Origin: Candidatus Moraniibacteriota bacterium
GTDB taxonomy: Bacteria; Patescibacteriota; Minisyncoccia; Moranbacterales; UBA1568
Reading direction: 5' to 3'
Assembly: GCA_016699425.1 (NCBI GenBank)
Contig: CP064975.1
Location: 987,957 to 1,051,956 of the forward strand
DNA: 64,000 bases
Made by a program: the position numbers and the translations under genes
Part shown: positions 1,669 to 55,164 of the stretch, in pieces
Layout: every line of letters begins with the position of its first letter
Position numbering within the stretch: the stretch's first letter is position 1
Notes under the pieces: model-generated
The model's database searches: none
The model's input: the letters and a program-made list of their open reading frames with translations, nothing else
Told to the model about the DNA's origin: nothing

Positions 1669-1881
1669 ATGCGATATCCTATCCCCACTCCCGTTTTGGA
1701 AACGCTCCGCGCCTTGGAACAGGCTGGATTCAAGGCGTATATCGTCGGTGGATCGCTGCGCGACCTCCTCATCGGCCGGACGCCCAAGGACTGGGATATT
1801 ACAACTGATGCTCGACCAGAGGAAATCCAGAAAGTGTTCCCTGAGTCAGTCTATGAAAATACTTTTGGGACCGTGGGGTGA
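1669..1881 (+). CDS. cca: CCA-adding tRNA nucleotidyltransferase, N-terminal fragment (head-domain start); stops at a TGA after a GGGG run
   Basis: Contains the GGSLRDLLIGRTPKDWDITT motif of the Pol-beta-like nucleotidyltransferase head. The reading frame ends TVG* at 1879-1881 and continues in the -1 frame. Confidence 0.7.
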   Translation: MRYPIPTPVLETLRALEQAGFKAYIVGGSLRDLLIGRTPKDWDITTDARPEEIQKVFPESVYENTFGTVG

Positions 1882-3242
1882 AAGTTGAACGCTTCAGTCC
1901 GGAACCTCCTGCCAACAACGAAGCGGTCTTTGAAGCCTCTGATAAGTCGTCCGAAAATGCTCCCCTTCAGAAGCCTTCATCCGACACAAAGGAGAAAGAG
2001 ATAATCGAGGTCACGACCTTTCGCGCCGAGACCGGCTATAGCGACCAGCGCCATCCTGATACAGTCTCTTTCGTCACCTCGATTGAGGCTGATCTCGCGC
2101 GCCGCGATTTCACCGTGAACGCTATGGCCGGACGGGTAACAGGAAACATCAACGAGACCGAGATCGATATTATCGATCCGTTTCATGGACAGACTGATAT
2201 CGAGCAGAAGTGCATCCGAGCGGTCGGTAACCCCGATGACCGTTTCACCGAAGACGGCCTGCGACTCCTCCGCGCCATCCGCCTCCCCGTCGAACTGAGC
2301 GATCCAAAGCAAGCGGACCTGACTTGGACGATCGAGGCGAATACCAGACAAGCGCTCCAGAAACACGCCGACATCCTGACTCGCGTCGCATTCGAGCGCA
2401 TCCGCGATGAGTTCTCACGGATAATCCTGTCGGCCCACCCGAGCCAAGGAGTCGCCCTCCTCCAAGAAACTGGTTTACTTCGGCATATCATCCCCGAGCT
2501 GGTAGAGGGTGTCGGCGTCGCCCAGAACCTACACCACATCTATACCGTCTGGGAACATAATCTCCGTGCTCTCGCAACCTGTCCATCGACAAAACTTTCG
2601 GTCCGGCTCGCCACGCTCCTCCACGATGTCGGCAAGCCGCGCACGAAACGAGGCGAGGGGTACCATTCGACGTTCTACAATCACGACCATGTCGGCGGTC
2701 GCATGACGAAGAAGATTCTTGAACGGCTTCGCTACCCGAAGAAGATTATCGACCATGCTGCGATGCTCGTCGACAATCACCTCTTCTACTACAATGTGGG
2801 TGAAGTGACTGAAGCATCCGTCCGGCGACTCATCAAACGTGTCGGCCTGGAAAACATGGATGACCTCATGGCCGTGCGCATCGGTGATCGGCTTGGCTCG
2901 GGTGTCCCCAAGGCCAAACCCTACAAACTCCGTCACCTCGAATACATGGTCGACAAAGTCTCTCAAGATGCAACCTCGGTGAAAATGCTGAAGGTCGATG
3001 GATCAGCGCTCATGGCCGAACTTAATCTCTCACCTGGTCCGAAGATTGGGGCGTTACTTGAGTGTCTCCTCGCCGAAGTCATCGATGACCCCGCGCGGAA
3101 TGTCCGGGAACAGCTTCTTGACCGAGCCCGGCAACTCATGGATAATGACCTCGATGCACTCCGACTCCTCGCCCAAGAACGGATCCATGAGGAGCGCGAG
3201 TCAGAGGATAAAACCATCCGCGGACGCCATCACGTCGCCTGA
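1878..3242 (+). CDS. cca: CCA-adding tRNA nucleotidyltransferase / poly(A) polymerase with HD domain (remainder of the gene in a different frame)
   Basis: EVTTFRAETGYSDQRHPDTVSFVTSIEADLARRDFTVNAMA is the conserved head/neck region. The HD domain reads LLHDVGKP...FYNHDHVG. The start shown is a GTG created by the frame change. Confidence 0.8.
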   Translation: MKVERFSPEPPANNEAVFEASDKSSENAPLQKPSSDTKEKEIIEVTTFRAETGYSDQRHPDTVSFVTSIEADLARRDFTVNAMAGRVTGNINETEIDIIDPFHGQTDIEQKCIRAVGNPDDRFTEDGLRLLRAIRLPVELSDPKQADLTWTIEANTRQALQKHADILTRVAFERIRDEFSRIILSAHPSQGVALLQETGLLRHIIPELVEGVGVAQNLHHIYTVWEHNLRALATCPSTKLSVRLATLLHDVGKPRTKRGEGYHSTFYNHDHVGGRMTKKILERLRYPKKIIDHAAMLVDNHLFYYNVGEVTEASVRRLIKRVGLENMDDLMAVRIGDRLGSGVPKAKPYKLRHLEYMVDKVSQDATSVKMLKVDGSALMAELNLSPGPKIGALLECLLAEVIDDPARNVREQLLDRARQLMDNDLDALRLLAQERIHEERESEDKTIRGRHHVA

Positions 3243-3246
3243 AATC

Positions 3247-3317
3247 GGAGTGTTGTATAGTGGTATTACGCACGCTTCGGGTGCGTGTGACCCGGGTTCG
3301 ATTCCCGGCACTCCGAC
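3247..3317 (+). tRNA. tRNA-Pro (anticodon CGG)
   Basis: Hand-folded cloverleaf. Acceptor CGGAGTG/CACTCCG with C1:G72 and A73, both bacterial tRNA-Pro identity elements. D-loop AGTGGTA. Anticodon stem CACGC/GCGTG with loop TTCGGGT (U33, CGG, G37). T-arm CCGGG-TTCGATT-CCCGG. No encoded CCA. Confidence 0.85.
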
Positions 3318-3337
3318 AAGAAATGTGACAGGGCAAG

Positions 3338-3398
3338 GGTGCGTGTGACCCGGGTTCCCTGCCTGTCGGCAGACAGGGATTCCCAGCACTCCGACAAT
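3338..3398 (+). repeat. Truncated copy of the 3' two-thirds of tRNA-Pro (anticodon loop to 3' end) with a 20-nt hairpin insertion in the T-loop
   Basis: GGGTGCGTGTGACCCGGGTTC...GATTCCCAGCACTCCGACAA repeats tRNA positions about 34-73. It is interrupted by CCTGCCTGTCGGCAGACAGG (6-bp stem CCTGTC/GACAGG, loop GGCA). One G-to-A change lies in the T-stem. Confidence 0.7.
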
Positions 3399-3545
3399 TG
3401 CTATCTAGCCCAAAAGTGAGGAGCATGTGCCGCTTATAGTCTTCACTGACACATCCATCTGTACCCGAAAAGCTGCTCCCCGCGCTTGACGAGACTGTCA
3501 CGAGAAGACGTACACCCACCCCTGAACGCTATTCTCCATTTGGCT

Positions 3546-3851
3546 ATGAAGCTCCTCATCGAACACCCATCGGACACCACCGTGACACTCTTCCGTCGTG
3601 CTGGCTATATATTCCAACGAGAAGAAGGGACCGAAACTAGCTTCATCCGACCGCTCGGAAGCTCGGGTTATCCGCGCTTCCACTGTTATGTGAAATCCAA
3701 GCCTGACTCTATAGAATGTAGTATTCACCTCGATCAGAAGCGCGAAACGTATGGCCGGACCACGCGGCACCACGGTGAGTACGAGGATGCTGGGGCGCTC
3801 GCTGATGAGATACGGCGCATTCAGCCGCTTCTAGGAGTGCGGGAGAGGTAG
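3546..3851 (+). CDS. Hypothetical small protein (about 101 aa) between tRNA-Pro and tRNA-Leu
   Basis: ORF only. No motif and no clear ribosome-binding site. Sits inside a tRNA-flanked segment. Confidence 0.3.
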   Translation: MKLLIEHPSDTTVTLFRRAGYIFQREEGTETSFIRPLGSSGYPRFHCYVKSKPDSIECSIHLDQKRETYGRTTRHHGEYEDAGALADEIRRIQPLLGVRER

Positions 3852-3924
3852 CGACAGACATTCAAGCAACGGCACTATAGGACACCATACCTGGGCGGAA
3901 GAAGTGTCTAGCAGAAATATATTT

Positions 3925-4008
3925 GCCATGGTGGCGGAATTGGTATACGCGCTAGCCTTAGGAGCTAGTGGGAGTAATCCCTTGAGAGTTCGAGTCTCTC
4001 CCATGGCA
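3925..4008 (+). tRNA. tRNA-Leu (anticodon TAG), type II with long variable arm
   Basis: Acceptor GCCATGG/CCATGGC with A73. 3-bp D-stem. Anticodon stem CTAGC/GCTAG with loop CTTAGGA. Variable arm GGGAGTAATCCC. T-arm GAGAG-TTCGAGT-CTCTC. Confidence 0.85.
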
Positions 4009-4072
4009 CAGTGAAAACGAGAGTGAGGTGGGCTAGCCTTTGACGCTGGATGTCTGGAGAACCTGTGAGTAC

Positions 4073-4093
4073 CCTGCCTATCGGCAGATAGGG
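4073..4093. repeat. Second copy of the small hairpin repeat (CCCTGCCTATCGGCAGATAGGG) related to the insert at 3359-3378
   Basis: Same 6-bp stem and GGCA loop. It differs by compensatory changes on both stem arms (G-to-A and C-to-T) that preserve the base pairing. Confidence 0.55.
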
Positions 4094-4110
4094 TGGTTAC
4101 TCTCTTGAAC

Positions 4111-4142
4111 AATAGAGACAGAAGACCCTCCGGAAGGAGGGT
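4111..4142 (-). terminator. Stem-loop terminator-like hairpin downstream of the 961-aa surface protein gene
   Basis: GAAGACCCTCC-GGAA-GGAGGGTCTTC is a perfect 11-bp stem. It lies immediately 3' of the minus-strand ORF ending at 4155. Confidence 0.5.
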
Positions 4143-4154
4143 CTTCTGTCTCCT

Positions 4155-7040
4155 TTAGCGCGACTGACGATTCCGAGATATAGCTGCTTCTGGTACATTG
4201 GGGATGACCGCAAACACGACTCCCGAAGCAAAAAGGATGAGAGCAACAGAGAAGAACACCTTCAGCGAAAAGAGTACCGATCCAGGGAGATAGCTTGCGA
4301 TGAGTGCATAGTACTTCTTCACACCCGTTTGAGTAATATTCAGTATCTCCGGCTGTTCGACTTGGGTACTGCCGCCAAAATAGCTTTCTGTCGTATCGAG
4401 TGAAGAAAGTCCCCAAATATCCTCCATCGCTTGACGAGTGAGCGTACTGGGTCGATAGACGGCGGTCAGAGAAACATTATAGACCGCTTGTCCAATCTTG
4501 TTCGCTGAGAACGCAATCGTATTCGTCGTCCCATCACCATATGGTACACCATCGACACTCCAGGAACGTTCGACTTGTGGCGGAGGAATGTTTGCGAGGA
4601 AATCAGGAGTGAAGAGTGCCCGAACCGGGACCGTACTCCCCGCCATTGTCTCCAGCGTTTCCTTGCTATATTCGGTGTAAGCGCCACCGTCCGTGTCCAG
4701 GTATTGACCAAGTGTCTTGGGCCAGACGCTGCCCATGTCATTCGATACGATACTCACTGATGGCTGGACTATCCGGAAAGTCCGAGAGATGGTCACGGTT
4801 CGTTCCGTCGAGCCGGCCGTGCTCGCCTGGTTCGCTGTGACGGTGATATTGAATGTATCGCCGACATTCCCAATCACCGGGAAGAAGTTGATGTTCCCTT
4901 GACGATCATCGAAGCAACTCGTGGCGGATACCCGCGCATTACAGATGAGCGGCTGACCATTGATGGTCCAATTGTAATTCGAGAGTCCAGCCCCCGGCAC
5001 TTCCAGCCCGATAATCTCATTCTTGATAACACGACAGAGTTTGCCATCCAAACGAGAGAGGGCTTGCTGTTCGGGCGGATCTGCCGGATTCACGATGCCC
5101 GAGCAAATCTCGTTGGCCGCATTGATCGAGACACGGGCCGGATCGCCAGCTGCCGTCACCGTATGGGCGAGGATGCGATCCTGGCTCGCATTGAACTTCA
5201 CAATGACGTCGCTCCGTCCCCGGCGAGTCGTTCCAGTCCCACTAAAATTTTCGGCAGCATCCACGCGGAAGCGCAGATAGCCGATATCGTTCAGGAGATA
5301 GTTCGTGAAAGGACGACCGTTGAACGTATCTGTTCTCTGCATATTCAAGTCGAGCTGCACCTTATTGACACCATTGCCCCGGACCTGGGACAAGAGCCGA
5401 CGACCCGGGAGGTTGTTCAGCGAACTCGTGATATTCACCCAACCAGCTGCTGGATTGGCTGTCCCGTCTGGCGAGAGCTCAACCCGCCAATCATAGTACA
5501 CCTGTTGTATTCCGCGGGCCGAGTTGTCGATGGTGGCCACGGCATTTAATTGGTCACCGTCACCCCGAGTCGTGACATCATTGAGTGGATCCTCGGGTGA
5601 AGCCGTGACTGAGAGATTAAGATTCGTTGATTGACCACCTTCAGCCGGATCGACCAGGTTCCAGCGAGCACACCAGCGCAGATCATGCGCAATAGTTGGG
5701 ATAACTACTTCATAACCAGCAATATTCCGTGTATATGACCCAGTATTGCCGTTATTCGGACAATTATTCTTCGACCAGGCCCACATGATCATATTGGATG
5801 AGTCCCGATACTTGGTCGCGTTCATCGAAGTCCCTTCGACCACCACTCCCACCTTATCGCCCGGCTGATAATTCCAAATAAAGGTGTCCCGGCCGAGCCC
5901 GACTACATTGGCCTCATCTTTATTCCCATTATCAGCTGTGTCTGGATCAGCAGGATTGGTCCGCCAGAACTGTTCTTCGGCAGCGCCGTAGGTGCCGTCC
6001 CCGGCCGTAAAACCTGGGGCCTGGGGGAATATGTGCCGACAAATTGGATTTGCATTGCTTCGGCCGACGCCGCCAGGCCGTGAACAGTACGTTAGACCGA
6101 TACTACAGAATGTCGCCGTGGCGGGATTCGAAACGCAGCATGGTGTTCCGACATTGCAGGCCGGGCTGCCAGACTGGGTACAATACGGCAGGCCCGAGAC
6201 ATAGTCATTCGCTTCGTCGAGATTGAAAGTCTCACCTTCTGCGGTCGCCGTCCCACCGGTCGCTGTTCCGCCCCCGGCACCACTCCCATCACTCGACGAG
6301 CTCGCCGTCCCACCGGTCGCACTGAGTTCCAGTATGCCCGGCGTGACATTGGCGCTCCCCACCATACAAATTGGTTGAGTGCCAGCTGGGCAGCCCCAAT
6401 CAACCTCTCCGACATCGGCATCGACGATCTCGTAATTCTCACCACTAGTATTGTCATGATAGTAGCAGTGATTCGGGACATTGACCCGGTTATCCCCTCC
6501 GAAACGGGCAAAGTAACCATCGTTATCAGTATCCACTCCATAATTCACGTTGGCCAAGTCAAGGTCATTGGAAGCGATTATCCGGTGCGCCTCGATCATG
6601 TAGTCTTCCTCGTCCGCCCAGTTGTCACCATTCAGATCGCAGCGGGCAATATTGAGGTTGCCTTCACATCCCGCCCGCATAAGGAACCACGTGAAGTAAA
6701 GATTACTCGCCTCACTCATAAAACCAGATGGAAAAGCACGGGCGGTAAGTTTTTCCCCCGGCTTCGGGTCCGAGGGTGAGAAGAAGAGTGAAACCTCCGG
6801 TGTTATTTTCTTGGCGTTAGCGACATTCATCGTTTCACCCTGCTCCTGGACGGCACCAGTGTTTACATGATAGCGTCTCTCAATATCCGCTGCCGCTTCA
6901 GAAGGGGAAGGTATCTTGATACTCGGCGATCCCCCAAAGAGCCCGGCTGAGGCAGGCAAGACAGAAACAATAAACAGCTCCAAACTCATCAAGAGACGGG
7001 CGAGCTGCAGGATCTTTTTGTGTTTTCTGAAACTCAACAT
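4155..7040 (-). CDS. Large secreted/cell-surface protein (961 aa); N-terminal signal peptide, Gly/Thr/Asn/Cys-rich ectodomain, C-terminal transmembrane anchor
   Basis: N-terminus MLSFRKHKKILQLARLLMSLELFIVSVLPASAG. Low-complexity TGGTASSSSDGSGAGGGTATGGTATAEGE stretch with multiple Cys. C-terminal hydrophobic segment followed by basic residues. Last gene of the T4SS-like operon. Confidence 0.7.
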   Translation of the reverse strand: MLSFRKHKKILQLARLLMSLELFIVSVLPASAGLFGGSPSIKIPSPSEAAADIERRYHVNTGAVQEQGETMNVANAKKITPEVSLFFSPSDPKPGEKLTARAFPSGFMSEASNLYFTWFLMRAGCEGNLNIARCDLNGDNWADEEDYMIEAHRIIASNDLDLANVNYGVDTDNDGYFARFGGDNRVNVPNHCYYHDNTSGENYEIVDADVGEVDWGCPAGTQPICMVGSANVTPGILELSATGGTASSSSDGSGAGGGTATGGTATAEGETFNLDEANDYVSGLPYCTQSGSPACNVGTPCCVSNPATATFCSIGLTYCSRPGGVGRSNANPICRHIFPQAPGFTAGDGTYGAAEEQFWRTNPADPDTADNGNKDEANVVGLGRDTFIWNYQPGDKVGVVVEGTSMNATKYRDSSNMIMWAWSKNNCPNNGNTGSYTRNIAGYEVVIPTIAHDLRWCARWNLVDPAEGGQSTNLNLSVTASPEDPLNDVTTRGDGDQLNAVATIDNSARGIQQVYYDWRVELSPDGTANPAAGWVNITSSLNNLPGRRLLSQVRGNGVNKVQLDLNMQRTDTFNGRPFTNYLLNDIGYLRFRVDAAENFSGTGTTRRGRSDVIVKFNASQDRILAHTVTAAGDPARVSINAANEICSGIVNPADPPEQQALSRLDGKLCRVIKNEIIGLEVPGAGLSNYNWTINGQPLICNARVSATSCFDDRQGNINFFPVIGNVGDTFNITVTANQASTAGSTERTVTISRTFRIVQPSVSIVSNDMGSVWPKTLGQYLDTDGGAYTEYSKETLETMAGSTVPVRALFTPDFLANIPPPQVERSWSVDGVPYGDGTTNTIAFSANKIGQAVYNVSLTAVYRPSTLTRQAMEDIWGLSSLDTTESYFGGSTQVEQPEILNITQTGVKKYYALIASYLPGSVLFSLKVFFSVALILFASGVVFAVIPNVPEAAISRNRQSR

Positions 7041-8805: not shown

Positions 8806-11142
8806 CTAAGGATTGTTGGCGTCAAATTCCCGCTTCGCCTCTTCAATTTCCAGGAGCTGGCGCGGGTCAGAAGTGATGATCTGGTCCTCGCTATATGAAG
8901 CGATAACCTTGATCGCCGCGTGCTTCGTCCCAGCGAAGAAGATTCCTTCGCCGACATTCGACTCGAGCAAGAGGAACTTCTCGTGGTCCGTCAGGTAAAA
9001 CGTCTCCGTGATGAAATCAATGGAAGCCGGCGACTGACGGAGGAGGAGCTGCATGGACGAGTTCGTGATAATCGGCTTGCCGTAGCGCGAAGACATGAAG
9101 TCAGAGATGTCCTGTGTGATCGTCGTGAGGCCCGTGTAGTACTTGCGGCAGCGCTTGGCGATACCAAAAAGGAATGAGGCCGCGTCTTCGTTTTGCATCA
9201 TGATCCACGCTTCATCGACGACAATGAGACGCTGGCGAAGCTTCGAGCGGATATCGTTCCAAATGTACTGAAGGATGATATACATGGCGATCGGCCGAAG
9301 CTCTTCCTCCAGGTCGCGGATATTGAACACCACAAGCTGATTGTTGGTGTCGATATTCGTCTGCTCATTGAGGAACCCCGAAAAAATCCCTTCCGTATAC
9401 CGCTGGAGACGTGCCGCGATCAAATCCGCCCCTTCCATATTCTTCAGGACCGCGTACAAGTCTGACATAGTCGGAAAGGAATTGGCCGTCAGTGACTCGT
9501 AATTCGAATCTTCGTGAATGTCACGAATGGCATAGGCTTCTCGGATCGCCTGATCCAGGATAGAGTCCTCTTCGGCCGACAGAGTGCCGAGCATAAGGTG
9601 AAGGAGACCAATGAGGTTGGCGATAGCGTTCCGGAACACGCCGTCCGACTCATCGTCAGCGCCCACCTTCGGCATATCAAACGGATTGAGGTGGATATCC
9701 GAATTCAGCGAAATCTTCAGGAATGCCCCGCCAACTGTCTCGCAGAGATGCTTGTACTCATTTTCAGGGTCGATGATGATGACGCTCGACTCGAACATGA
9801 GCGCCCGCAAGACTTCAAGCTTCACCGTATAACTCTTTCCAGCACCGGACTTCGCAAACACCACCATATTTGCGTTTTCCATCTTGAACCGGTCAAAGAG
9901 GATGAGCGAGTTGTTATGACGGTTGATGCCATAGAGGATTCCTTCGTTCGAAGAGAGATCGGAGGAAACAAAGGGGAAAGTCGTCGACAAAGGCTCAGTG
10001 TTCAGGTTGTTGGCGACATCCAAGGCATCATTCGCGAGCGGACGCGTCGATGCGAAACCCGCATCCATTCGGAGTACGGCCGGTTTAGTATAGACGAGCT
10101 GCGCCTCGAGCATCGCCTCGACAGACTGTTCTTTCTGTGAGAGATCCTTTTCGTCTGCTCCGTATATCATCATGTACAGTCCGAAACGGAAGAACTTCTC
10201 TGTCCCTTGCTGAAGCCGATCGCGCAGTTCTTCGATGTTCTGAAGGGCTGCCTCGAGCACGGGGTCACGGATTTTCCCTTCTTCGACTTCGATATTCATC
10301 TGCGACTGCACCTGGGTTGCTGATTTCCGGAGCTGTTTCAGGATCTCGGCCGTCTCGATCGGATGGATGAAGAGCGCCGTGTCCATCGGAAAGTCGAGAT
10401 TGATGATCGGGGAAAACCAATTGGTCGAGAGGAAACGTGGATACGCGATGACAAACAGCGCGCGTGCAACGACATCGCCGATTTGCATCGACGCCGGAGT
10501 GACCCGGATAGCCGGCGGAGCGATCAGGTCCTTGATTGTCGCCAGGCCCTTCTGGTACAACTGCTCCGTATCCAGTCCTTCATCCAGCTCCAGAATCCGT
10601 GGATTATTCTTGAAGAGTTTGCTGAAAATACCGGCTTTTTCTGACTGTGCACGCACAACACGTTCTTCGGGCGCAACATGTGACACGACTTCTTTGGCCC
10701 AGACCTCACGGTTTGCCTGTGGCTGAAGCAAGGCCTCATAGTCAGGCACCGCGACGGCCTCTCGCATCGGGGCCTCCCGGACGGGGGGGTCAGGCACGAT
10801 GTACGGTTCGAGCTCGGGTACAGCCACTGGCGGTGTGACCGGATCGGCCTCGACTATCACCAATGGTTCCACCTTCGGTCGTGGTTTCGGCGTCGGCTTT
10901 GGTTTCGGTCTTGCCTTCGGTAACGGTTTTGGTTGCGGCTCGGTAACCGTAACAGACGCTTTCGGTTGGCGGACCGGCGCGGCGACCACCTCTACTGGAG
11001 GCACTGGAGACGTCTTTACCACCGGCGCTGGCCGCGATGGCGGAACCGGAGCCTGGCCTGATCCAGGCGTCGTGATATTCATGGGATCTACCACGGATAC
11101 CTTCCTGATTGGCCGGTCAAAAATGATGAGTTCTCGTGCCAT
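8806..11142 (-). CDS. virB4: VirB4/TrbE-family type IV secretion ATPase (778 aa) with a roughly 150-aa Pro-rich N-terminal extension
   Basis: Walker A VFAKSGAGKSYT and Walker B RLIVVDEAWIMM. The middle region (AIRVTPASMQIGD...YPRFLSTNWFSPIINLDFPMDTALFIHP) is typical of Gram-positive-type VirB4 proteins. Confidence 0.85.
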   Translation of the reverse strand: MARELIIFDRPIRKVSVVDPMNITTPGSGQAPVPPSRPAPVVKTSPVPPVEVVAAPVRQPKASVTVTEPQPKPLPKARPKPKPTPKPRPKVEPLVIVEADPVTPPVAVPELEPYIVPDPPVREAPMREAVAVPDYEALLQPQANREVWAKEVVSHVAPEERVVRAQSEKAGIFSKLFKNNPRILELDEGLDTEQLYQKGLATIKDLIAPPAIRVTPASMQIGDVVARALFVIAYPRFLSTNWFSPIINLDFPMDTALFIHPIETAEILKQLRKSATQVQSQMNIEVEEGKIRDPVLEAALQNIEELRDRLQQGTEKFFRFGLYMMIYGADEKDLSQKEQSVEAMLEAQLVYTKPAVLRMDAGFASTRPLANDALDVANNLNTEPLSTTFPFVSSDLSSNEGILYGINRHNNSLILFDRFKMENANMVVFAKSGAGKSYTVKLEVLRALMFESSVIIIDPENEYKHLCETVGGAFLKISLNSDIHLNPFDMPKVGADDESDGVFRNAIANLIGLLHLMLGTLSAEEDSILDQAIREAYAIRDIHEDSNYESLTANSFPTMSDLYAVLKNMEGADLIAARLQRYTEGIFSGFLNEQTNIDTNNQLVVFNIRDLEEELRPIAMYIILQYIWNDIRSKLRQRLIVVDEAWIMMQNEDAASFLFGIAKRCRKYYTGLTTITQDISDFMSSRYGKPIITNSSMQLLLRQSPASIDFITETFYLTDHEKFLLLESNVGEGIFFAGTKHAAIKVIASYSEDQIITSDPRQLLEIEEAKREFDANNP

Positions 11143-49823: not shown

Positions 49824-50708
49824 ATGCCTGAAATGGCACCACTCACGAGCATTACCGTCAGTGCATTTCGTGTCGCCTGGCGAAGGCGTTTCTTGTGGCG
49901 ACTCGCTCTCCCGGTGAGTGTCCTCATCGGAATTAACTCACATGTGGCCAGGGAGATACAGCATACCCTCCTGGATTCGACCGACCGATCACACTGGCTC
50001 TCCCTTCTCACTGATTCGGCGACGCTCACGCTCTTCGGTTTCGTGGTTCTCGTTTCTCTCCTGCAGTCAGCAATCCGTGGACCCATCATCCTCTGCCTCG
50101 AACATGGTTACCCACACGATGCCAATGTGAAACGGAAGGGAGTCTCTCGATCCGAGATGCTTCGGGCAATTTTTGTTTCTGCTACTTTTGACGTCTTGTA
50201 TTGGTTTACTCTCCTCATTGTCGCAACCGTTATCGCGGTTCCCTGTTTCATCGCTTGGCAATTCAATCCATCTGTTCTCACCGGAATTCTTGAATTTGGT
50301 GCACTGATTCTGTTTACTCTGGGAGTCTACCTCACTTTCATCAAAGAACTCGCCTGTCTCTACGCTCTCCTCGGAAACGTTCGTCTCTCTTCAGCTGTTG
50401 ACCTCGGTTTCCGACTCTACCGCCGTCAGGCTTTCAATACACTTCTTTTTTTCTCCTATGTGGTACTACTCGCCATCCTCTTCGCAGTGTTCGTCGGAAG
50501 TCTCATTTCAGCCGTGGGGCTGGCACGATTCCAAGCAGGATGGCTTGTTGTTATCGCCTCTTCTCTCCCTTTTGGTCTCTATACTATCTTTGACCAGTCG
50601 CTACGGTTGAGCTTCTTCCATTCAGTCGCTACGACACCGAAGAAACCGGTTTTGAAAGAGGTCGCACTTGAGCCAAGTGAAAGCCAATCTGGTGTCGCAC
50701 CGAGCTAA
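49824..50708 (+). CDS. Hypothetical polytopic membrane protein (294 aa)
   Basis: ORF with about six TM helices. Confidence 0.55.
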   Translation: MPEMAPLTSITVSAFRVAWRRRFLWRLALPVSVLIGINSHVAREIQHTLLDSTDRSHWLSLLTDSATLTLFGFVVLVSLLQSAIRGPIILCLEHGYPHDANVKRKGVSRSEMLRAIFVSATFDVLYWFTLLIVATVIAVPCFIAWQFNPSVLTGILEFGALILFTLGVYLTFIKELACLYALLGNVRLSSAVDLGFRLYRRQAFNTLLFFSYVVLLAILFAVFVGSLISAVGLARFQAGWLVVIASSLPFGLYTIFDQSLRLSFFHSVATTPKKPVLKEVALEPSESQSGVAPS

Positions 50709-54932: not shown

Positions 54933-55164
54933 ACCCCATTAAATTACGTCTCTTAGCTATTCAGGATTTTTACAGCCTCTTTACAGCCATTGAGGCTGGT
55001 ATTTTTAGATAATCAGAATTAATATATTCAGTTCAGTATGAAAAGTCCAACTACAAGCAAAATTATTGGATAATATCCTCACTTATCTACTAGTTATCCA
55101 CAGTTCCTCTGATACAATACGCTTATCTTGCCATCGTAGCGGTTTCCCAGTATAGTACACCTTC

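Follow-up and report, generated by a model that had tools for sequence, protein, structure and literature searches.

The stretch analysed here (the window) comprises 64,000 nt from Candidatus Moraniibacteriota bacterium (contig CP064975.1, positions 987,957 to 1,051,956), and it contains two transfer RNA (tRNA) genes that are each followed by a partial tRNA copy carrying a 20-nt hairpin. The first gene, an intact tRNA-Pro(CGG) on the plus strand (3246–3316/3317), was recognized by ARAGORN and by Rfam (RF00005, 59.4 bits). Its 5' neighbour on the same strand is cca, encoding a class II CCA-adding enzyme (1669–3242; Pfam PolyA_pol, PolyA_pol_RNAbd, HD and tRNA_NucTran2_2), whose stop codon lies 3 nt upstream of the tRNA gene. 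No CCA is encoded by tRNA-Pro, the discriminator being followed by CAA (3317–3319). A direct repeat of 41 nt, extending from nt 35 of the tRNA through the discriminator and CAA, is present at 3279–3319 and again, in two pieces, at 3337–3357 and 3378–3397. Between the copies lies a unique 17-nt spacer, GAAATGTGACAGGGCAA (3320–3336, plus strand).

The left half of the displaced tRNA-Pro copy (nt 35–56; 3337–3357) matches 3279–3299 at 21/21 positions, and the right half (nt 57–73 plus CAA; 3378–3397) is followed by the native flank TTGCTATC. Hairpin copy 1, CCTGCCTGTCGGCAGACAGG, separates them at 3358–3377, all three segments being on the plus strand. The insert is exactly 20 nt long and enters the T-loop after C56 and before G57; its placement is unambiguous and no target duplication accompanies it. 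An initial annotation, made from the letters of the window, had described a partial tRNA-Pro copy with a 20-nt T-loop insert and one T-stem substitution, and this description stands with coordinates shifted by at most 1 nt. The substitution, at 3385, is an A in the window only, the corresponding position being G in ten near-identical strain contigs. None of the shuffled windows contained two matches to any of three patterns (the repeat halves and the hairpin). With up to five mismatches allowed, just two hairpin copies occur in the 64-kb window, so that the multiplicity of a repetitive extragenic palindromic (REP) sequence was not seen there. Among the intact tRNA genes of hairpin-bearing metagenome loci (L178–L297), CAA is the commonest post-discriminator trinucleotide (33% vs 15% for CCA).

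A similar arrangement surrounds the second gene, an intact tRNA-Leu(TAG) on the plus strand (3925–4009; ARAGORN and Rfam). Local alignment identified the left part of a decayed tRNA-Leu copy, which starts at the anticodon arm and reaches the 5' half of the T-arm, at 4032–4072, and the right part, corresponding to the 3' strand of the T-stem, was aligned at 4093–4110, both on the plus strand. The hairpin reported earlier 3' of tRNA-Leu is indeed present between these parts (4073–4092, plus strand), at the T-loop position of the decayed remnant; this copy, CCTGCCTATCGGCAGATAGG, differs from copy 1 by G8A and C17T. When the hairpin is removed, the stretch after tRNA-Leu becomes colinear with nt 26–81 of the tRNA, and GCTAGCCTT in the anticodon arm is identical. 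The alignment score is modest and was equalled in 65 of 2000 shuffles. In a related lineage (B, see below) the alignment extends to the acceptor end, the remnant in L024 terminating in TGGCAC, and relative to that lineage the right part in the window has a 10-nt deletion. The hairpin begins 63 nt 3' of tRNA-Leu. Since this distance, the order of the parts and the T-loop position of the hairpin match the tRNA-Pro case, the layout is present twice in the window, the instance at tRNA-Pro being young and that at tRNA-Leu old.

Comparative loci were anchored on a conserved 101-amino acid (aa) open reading frame (ORF) at 3546–3851 on the plus strand, which has 659 homologues, mostly labelled Moranbacteria, and gave no Pfam match; it is a syntenic neighbour that lies outside the element. 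Among the related loci (L001–L033, the longest of which, L001, spans 18 kb), the order IF2, cca, tRNA-Pro, 101-aa ORF, tRNA-Leu and a convergent gene of ~960 aa is conserved. Five species, in which the ORF is 69–88% identical, possess a single tRNA-Pro and have neither a partial copy nor a hairpin. In most of these five species tRNA-Pro is located within a long-range stem, CCCGTCACA...TGTGACGGG, and intergenic comparison with L014, L017, L019 and L031 showed TGTGACAGGG within the spacer of the window to be the counterpart of TGTGACGGG, the 3' arm of this stem. Because the spacer carries that arm, it resembles the 3' flank of a relative's tRNA-Pro rather than island DNA. The stem itself measures 9–12 bp (for example CTTCCCGTCACA...TGTGACGGGAAG; L014, L017, L019, L021 and L031), and its letters vary between species while the pairing is maintained.

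Closer relatives fall into states A to D. State A, comprising the window and L001–L010, has the partial tRNA-Pro copy with its hairpin and the second hairpin 3' of tRNA-Leu. State B (L024–L027) shares this layout with a remnant that differs in its variable loop/T-stem (AAGGTCTGGG) and carries CACTCTG, and its second hairpin reads CCTGCCTATCGGCAGACAAG. State C (L028–L030) is without exactly the 78 nt of spacer, displaced copy and hairpin, and it is without the tRNA-Leu remnant as well. The flank TTGCTATC stands directly 3' of the intact tRNA in lineage C and 3' of the remnant in lineage A. In state D (L031–L033), a decayed 5' part of the old tRNA is followed by ATCCCGTCACATATC, a complete tRNA-Pro of another allele, CAAGAAATGTGACGGGACAA and, last, the 3' part of the old gene, whose hairpin (CCTACCCCTATCGGCAGATAAG) has decayed; a whole new gene, together with both arms of the bracketing stem, thus lies inside the anticodon loop of the old gene. 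The lineage D hairpin has undergone four transitions and an insertion of 2 nt, and it retains hardly any fold (−0.7 kcal/mol).

Lineage C was considered as a clean empty site and rejected on account of its mosaic identity to the window: in L028, the segment from tRNA-Pro to tRNA-Leu (3246–4009) is 98.5% identical, as against 83% for cca and 75% for the 961-aa gene. The breakpoints fall at both tRNAs, and lineage C is a recombinant mosaic arising from recent horizontal exchange. A crossover in the 20-nt segment common to the remnant and the intact gene would yield the lineage C product.

The hairpin belongs to a family, CCTGYCTGYCGRCAGRCAGG, whose perfect palindrome, P, is CCTGCCTGCCGGCAGGCAGG and of which copy 1 in the window represents form F. 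A context-free scan of one genome per GTDB species with the pattern CCTGCCTRTCGGCAGAYAGG recovered form F from at least 120 species genomes in ~14 phylum-level groups, cultured isolates included, where about 4 loci are expected by chance (1.2e12 positions x 4^-18 x 2^-2). The hosts are mostly Bacteroidota, including cultured Flavobacteriia, and extend to Saccharibacteria, Falkowbacteria, other Patescibacteria, Actinomycetota, Bacillota, Nitrospirota, Planctomycetota, Verrucomicrobia, Lentisphaerae, Omnitrophota, Ignavibacteria-like bacteria, Rhodothermia/Balneola, Marinimicrobia, Delta- and Gammaproteobacteria and one Nostocales cyanobacterium. Among the 128 copies listed, 121 are letter-identical to copy 1, A8 alone occurs in 7 and A8/T17 in 0. 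Viral contigs contributed 24 further hairpin loci with up to five copies per contig. Given that the orthologous copy in lineage D has decayed, identity across phyla implies young copies derived from a conserved source and not selection acting on each copy. As single-stranded DNA, P is predicted to form 8 bp closed by a tetraloop (−8.0 kcal/mol) and F to adopt a shifted register of 6 bp, CCTGTC/GACAGG (−5.6 kcal/mol), in which the two differences between F and P, C9T and G16A, pair with each other.

Several properties are consistent with insertion of the 20-mer into pre-existing DNA. Flanks are unrelated between loci and show a weak bias (G at −1 in 57% and T at +3 in 56%), and long open frames are found at 16% of hairpin copies compared with 72% of random positions. 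Nested copies in L039 and L172 indicate self-insertion after nt 11, and the hairpins cluster with other CCTGCC...GGCAGG hairpins. In all four comparisons of filled and empty paralogous sites (the window, L070, L112 and L113), the difference was a 20-nt insert with no duplication. Period-7 repeats adjoin 2.6% of F copies as against 0.1% of controls and, on viral contigs, 14% of P copies as against 2% of controls. On this basis the insert has the behaviour of a mobile or copy-pasted element of extremely small size. The initial annotation had offered this as one possibility, a small mobile repeat that forms a hairpin and targets the T-loops of tRNAs; as a pattern, this idea is now strongly supported by the abundance of copies across at least 120 genomes and at least 120 T-loop loci. 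Tandem heptamers such as GGTGAGA, CACGAAG, GTGATTT and CAAAATC often surround the 20-mer (L054, L060, L121, L133, L134, L148, L298, L306, L319 and L323). Flanking sequences that lengthen the palindrome were no more frequent than in shuffled pairings.

We then consider how the 20-mer is placed relative to tRNAs. Of the 128 F copies listed in the context-free sample, 18 are within 500 nt of a tRNA and 13 reside in tRNA-derived sequence, 12 of them at or next to the D-loop (L034; L112, with five tandem units; L113; L070, with two; L081; L084; L124). About 90% of the F copies are far from any tRNA or GIY-YIG ORF. A separate census of metagenomes with the pattern GTTC[CCTGYCTGYCGRCAGRCAGG]RAWTC, in either orientation, placed the family at T-loop position 56|57 in at least 120 loci and more than 25 tRNA species, the chance expectation being far below one. 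Form P accounts for 104 of the 128 copies at this position, F and its reverse complement for 15 and single-change intermediates for nine. Most of the hairpin-bearing T-arms (110/128) are partial 3' fragments, and in 73 cases an intact tRNA on the same strand, no more than 200 nt upstream, ends 8–190 nt (median 41) before the hairpin. The 3' part of the remnant is identical to the upstream intact tRNA in 19 of these 73 cases and has diverged in the others, so that the remnant is often an older allele. In long tRNA arrays (among them those in L195 and L217) the insert occupies 56|57 of otherwise complete genes and there is no duplication nearby, which indicates that insertion is independent of duplication.

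Isoacceptors with C34 (Arg-CCU, Gly-CCC, Pro-CGG, Pro-GGG, Ala-CGC and Arg-CCG) are over-represented at the T-loop loci, and these are plausibly dispensable. Six T-loop cases involve tRNA-Pro(CGG) itself. One of them, L263, reproduces the layout of the window at this gene, as does L294; in L263 a homologue of the 101-aa ORF of the window then follows, and L294 carries a GIY-YIG ORF. These data suggest that the insert strongly prefers tRNA loops, namely the T-loop at 56|57 and the D-loop at 21|22.

Some loci are more elaborate. Tandem arrays of partial tRNAs, with periods of 116, ~120 and 313 nt, adjoin an intact tRNA and have a hairpin in each unit (L112 3900–4600, L290 560–800 and L070 6400–7100). 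On a viral contig (L160 250–380), a tRNA-Leu-like gene that follows a GIY-YIG ORF contains three hairpin inserts, of which one, truncated, is in the D-loop and the other two (F and CCTGCCTACCGGTAGGCAGG) lie side by side before the T-loop. The variable loop of tRNA-Met is a further target, P being located within it (GAGG|TC) on the viral contigs L299 and L322. Unrelated hairpins, such as GTCATTCCTGCGAAGGCAGGAATC and CTCCGAC...GTCGGAG, lie in the D- or T-loops of remnants in L232, L199, L067, L208 and L197, and a hairpin of the type GTCATTCC...GGAATC also flanks the 20-mer in L107 and L119. We considered reverse transcription of mature tRNA as the origin of the remnants and rejected it, since 17.5% of remnants, and 14.7% of intact genes, have CCA after the discriminator, and since the displaced copy in the window has CAA, as does the gene.

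Apart from syntenic or housekeeping neighbours such as cca, the sole non-spurious protein family that recurs beside the hairpin is a GIY-YIG nuclease of ~80 aa (PF01541), found at 6 of 120 genome loci and 25 of 120 T-loop loci. Protein clustering revealed no other recurrent family beside the hairpin, RAYT not having been searched for specifically, and no integrase-like family recurring in 240 analogous loci. The GIY-YIG ORFs are located between old and new tRNA parts. In one layout (r45, r86, r100 and r60), nt 1–56 of the old tRNA are followed by the hairpin, nt 57–64, the ORF and an intact tRNA, and r33 has the same plan with the ORF deleted. In L070, L112 and L329 an old 5' part with hairpin precedes the ORF and an intact tRNA, while L046 and L160 show the order intact tRNA, ORF and tRNA-like 3' part with hairpin. 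At tRNA-Pro(CGG) in L294, an old 5' part with a short hairpin is followed by the ORF, the new tRNA, a spacer and the old T-arm with hairpin, which is the plan of lineage D with the ORF added. The combination seen at these cassettes, a split old gene and a supplied replacement part, is found in the window and in lineage D.

The GIY-YIG family is large, and its source names include Moranbacteria, some members adjoining tRNA-Pro. Three cassettes were chosen regardless of the hairpin; two adjoin tRNA-Pro and one is inside a recombinase gene. Cassette boundaries are formed by 10–11-nt inverted repeats (TTAGAAATTT / AAATTTCTAA and CCCCGTTAGAA / TTCTAACGGGG), and a unit bounded in this way looks like a transposon-like element. 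From these arrangements, GIY-YIG cassettes appear to be one source of displaced tRNA parts. ORFs bounded by inverted repeats were seen in L337 (1440–1770), L338 (1440–1790) and L294 (900–1200), and in L338 a recombinase gene is split by the unit at its C-terminal ...LLGHKDLRTTMIYT|HV motif, with TATA on each side. The one candidate for a GIY-YIG remnant in the window, a 15-aa match between tRNA-Ala and tRNA-Arg (55099–55143), was dismissed as chance.

On balance, we favour the view that the locus is no longer a functioning device but the relic of a replacement of tRNA genes, and that its mark is a tiny palindrome, apparently mobile, with a preference for tRNA loops. Incoming DNA would bring a fresh 3' portion of the tRNA together with a short foreign flank and push the resident 3' portion downstream. 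As a result of this displacement, an intact gene would come to be followed by the cast-off end of its predecessor. Such a replacement may have taken place earlier at tRNA-Leu(TAG) and later at tRNA-Pro(CGG). An insert in a loop must inactivate the tRNA, so copies would persist only in dispensable targets, that is, displaced remnants, redundant genes in arrays and C34 isoacceptors. A tRNA could have been hit and then replaced, or replaced and then hit. The agent of replacement was most likely a small tRNA-associated GIY-YIG mobile cassette, or else tRNA-anchored recombination with the DNA of a relative. If a GIY-YIG ORF was ever present in the lineage of the window, it has since been lost.

A number of results weigh against this interpretation. 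Only one of the 128 F copies in the context-free sample (L046) occupies T-loop position 56|57, and the pattern used for the T-loop census itself demanded a T-loop context. In a crude test of a general preference for predicted hairpin loops, the junction fell in a loop in 27% of cases compared with 34% of random positions, and such a preference was rejected. We found no strain that has the partial copy and lacks the hairpin, so that we can only infer the order of events. Neither tblastn nor hidden Markov model searches detected a GIY-YIG gene or fragment in the window or in the 33 related loci. None of the three independently chosen GIY-YIG cassettes has a hairpin nearby, indicating that the link between the two may be indirect. 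Finally, our searches yielded no enzyme, donor or master copy that would account for the identity of the 20-mer across phyla.

We also asked how far other explanations fit the same evidence. In the main alternative, the hairpin would not move independently but would be a component of a GIY-YIG homing cassette, a cis or immunity element sited at the cleavage or recognition target of the nuclease so as to immunize the invaded allele; it would spread by co-conversion, with the ORF lost in the window. At loci selected for the hairpin, 33 of the 44 GIY-YIG domain matches lie within 120 nt of it, typically 18–32 nt away, and the hairpin is invariably in the displaced tRNA part that adjoins the ORF. 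Co-conversion would also fit the observation that lineages A/B and D resemble each other far more in the block of spacer and remnant than in the intergenic DNA around it. Nevertheless, we consider this unlikely: some nine-tenths of the context-free F copies are remote from either feature, the hairpin occurs in full array tRNA genes that have no cassette, and it is found in varied tRNAs and at varied positions. An obligatory role in the cassette is ruled out by the absence of a hairpin from all three independently chosen examples.

Less probable again is the reading proposed in the initial annotation, that the duplicated tRNA end is an attL/attR footprint. In this case a tyrosine-integrase element would have entered at an anticodon-loop site in tRNA-Pro and been almost entirely deleted, and the hairpin would have entered attR later. 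The geometry is appropriate, in that the direct repeat runs from the anticodon loop through the 3' end and 3 nt beyond, and 3' of the displaced copy comes the same flank that adjoins the intact tRNA directly in lineage C. This part of the proposal is borne out by the repeat. The gap between the copies is just 17 nt, however, and resembles the tRNA-Pro 3' flank of a relative; no integrase gene was called within ~8 kb in L001 or on the shorter related contigs; and the 240 analogous loci share no recurrent integrase-like family. More than 70 of the analogous loci, moreover, have the hairpin at the short distances past an intact tRNA end given above.

It could also be argued that the tRNA-like 3' fragment is a functional RNA, a processing signal, terminator or decoy of the CCA enzyme, maintained by structural selection. 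Its location directly 3' of cca–tRNA-Pro in the same orientation, the recurrence of the layout after many tRNAs and the apparently compensatory pair 8–17 between the two window copies would favour such a role. The initial annotation had taken this pair as a sign of selection on structure. A8 and T17 do pair in one register, and to that extent the observation holds. Positions 8 and 17 pair in 1 of three possible registers, however, and seven other genomes contain the uncompensated form A8/C17, which a sister lineage has in combination with G19A. Such variants lose nothing in stability, as both copy 2 (A8/T17) and the A8/C17 form adopt the stem CTGCC/GGCAG at −4.7 kcal/mol, with or without the second change; the compensatory pair is dispensable for the hairpin, and compensation has weak support. 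Lineage C and five related species lack the fragment, the lineage D hairpin has all but lost its fold, and the tRNA-Leu remnant has decayed, with its extra 10-nt deletion. The fold of region 3320–3420 is unremarkable (z = −0.8), and at gathering score Rfam returned only tRNA, lower matches being noise, so that a known RNA family for the hairpin or remnant was ruled out. We regard a functional RNA as very improbable.

A local replication-slippage duplication or an assembly artefact, of which a homopolymer frameshift in cca serves as a reminder, deserves practically no credence, given that the structure is present in at least 14 independently assembled contigs (NCBI, JGI and Logan) and the hairpin in genomes of cultured isolates, that the partial copy recurs in related strains, and that the second copy has no trailing spacer, which rules out a tandem duplication. 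The frameshift in question results from GGGG in the window in place of GGGGG in L001 (G-run at 1874–1878) and splits an ORF of 524 aa, uninterrupted in L001, into 1669–1881 and 1878–3242; it is either a long-read homopolymer error or a recent pseudogene.

If the replacement relic and its mobile palindrome are considered next to known systems, the nearest described are the small dispersed repeats (SDRs) of Nostocaceae and, after these, free-standing GIY-YIG homing endonucleases in phage tRNA clusters. SDRs were reportedly described in heterocystous cyanobacteria by Elhai et al. 2008 (Genome Res 18:1484). This work is cited in PMC5861425 and PMC3116915, and the former reports that SDRs are confined to Nostocaceae. 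The 20-mer is like the SDRs, of ~20–27 nt, in its size of 20 nt, its hairpin potential and its unrelated flanks, and also in self-insertion (nested in L039 and L172) and in the embedding among heptamers that is evident from the period-7 excess; both are candidates for the smallest mobile DNA. It differs in being present in ~14 phylum-level groups and on phage contigs, the comparison with SDRs having been made by description. Links to tRNA loops, displaced tRNA ends or GIY-YIG nucleases are not known to belong to the description of SDRs. Full-text literature searches with the 20-mer letters and with the concept returned no paper that gives or describes the hairpin.

REPs and their REPIN arrangements are likewise short, imperfect, intergenic palindromes that are non-autonomous and dispersed. 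REPs are mobilized by RAYT (IS200-like TnpA) transposases. They are lineage-specific, number tens to hundreds per genome, share a conserved tetranucleotide at the 5' end and are inherited vertically alongside a single RAYT gene. The 20-mer, in contrast, has few copies per genome, the same letters across phyla and a weak flank bias. A miniature inverted-repeat transposable element of a DDE transposon would share the inverted-repeat arms but is expected to duplicate its target, which was not seen in four filled/empty comparisons. GC clusters, fungal-mitochondrial double-hairpin elements and Rickettsia palindromic elements are ~30–150 nt long and restricted to an organelle or a genus, and some of them duplicate their target. 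They resemble the 20-mer as GC-rich palindromic mini-inserts that occur in spacers and even in RNA or protein genes and are polymorphic between strains; none of them is known to cross phylum boundaries or to have a link with T-loop position 56|57.

With regard to the tRNA genes, Williams 2002 is said to have distinguished anticodon-loop and T-loop attB classes among the tyrosine-integrase elements that use tRNAs. Integrative elements anchored at tRNAs share with our locus the direct repeat of the tRNA 3' end, a gene restored by incoming DNA and the displacement of the native end. Unlike them, the window has no integrase or island and a spacer of 17 nt, and the protein that recurs at analogous loci is a GIY-YIG nuclease and not a recombinase. 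Free-standing GIY-YIG homing endonucleases are found in tRNA gene clusters, an example being SegB of phage T4 (PMC2330249). The cassettes described here are similar in having a small GIY-YIG gene among or inside tRNA genes, a flanking tRNA that travels along and segmental duplication. They differ in that they are seen in cellular genomes (the candidate phyla radiation (CPR), Bacteroidota and others), split a tRNA gene and supply either a part to replace the lost one or an entire gene; inverted repeats of 10–11 nt bound some of them, and the window is without the ORF. Non-canonical archaeal tRNA introns occur in D- and T-loops, and, like the 20-mer, they are short inserts away from position 37/38. 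The organism of the window, however, is a bacterium with bacterial-type genes and a class II CCA enzyme, the 20-mer is mostly outside tRNAs, and bacteria are not known to have a splicing endonuclease. We rejected an archaeal-type intron, the inserts in the window being in gene fragments that lack the 5' third and are unable to make a tRNA.

Taken further, the P/F 20-mer could be a pan-bacterial mobile element, the smallest known, that enters the loops of tRNA genes with no target duplication and, together with small GIY-YIG cassettes that are bounded by terminal inverted repeats and bring replacement tRNA parts, constitutes a 'disable-and-replace' cycle, of which the window would preserve two successive rounds; this extension is conceivable but in our opinion doubtful. 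If it were true, such a cycle would drive tRNA-gene turnover and horizontal exchange across phyla. A mobile 20-mer would in any case be at or below the known lower size limit of mobile DNA. It is common to phyla that have almost no other non-coding sequence in common, and this raises the question of which enzyme or template writes the same 20 letters in Bacteroidota, CPR, Nitrospirota, a cyanobacterium and phages. The preference for tRNA loops and the co-occurrence with GIY-YIG nucleases point to an unrecognized route of tRNA-gene decay, rescue and horizontal replacement, and the breakpoints at both tRNAs in the lineage of the window provide an example. In practical terms, remnants of this kind can mislead tRNA annotation and the prediction of att sites and genomic islands, and the 20-mer provides a handy marker for the loci concerned.

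Other features of the window are of minor relevance. Two further candidates, CCTGCCATTCCGGCAGG (32160) and a weak match to tRNA-Val (50657–50704), look like chance and were set aside. A GC-rich stem-loop of 17 bp (4115–4152), detected by folding 4010–4160 (z = −5.4), separates tRNA-Leu from the convergent 961-aa gene. It probably acts as a terminator in both directions, and it lies outside the element. A type IV secretion-like cluster with a VirB4/DUF87 ATPase, a TraC-like protein and PrgI is encoded on the minus strand ~5–10 kb from the tRNAs, at 8806–11142 of the window and downstream, as judged from the gene list of L001.

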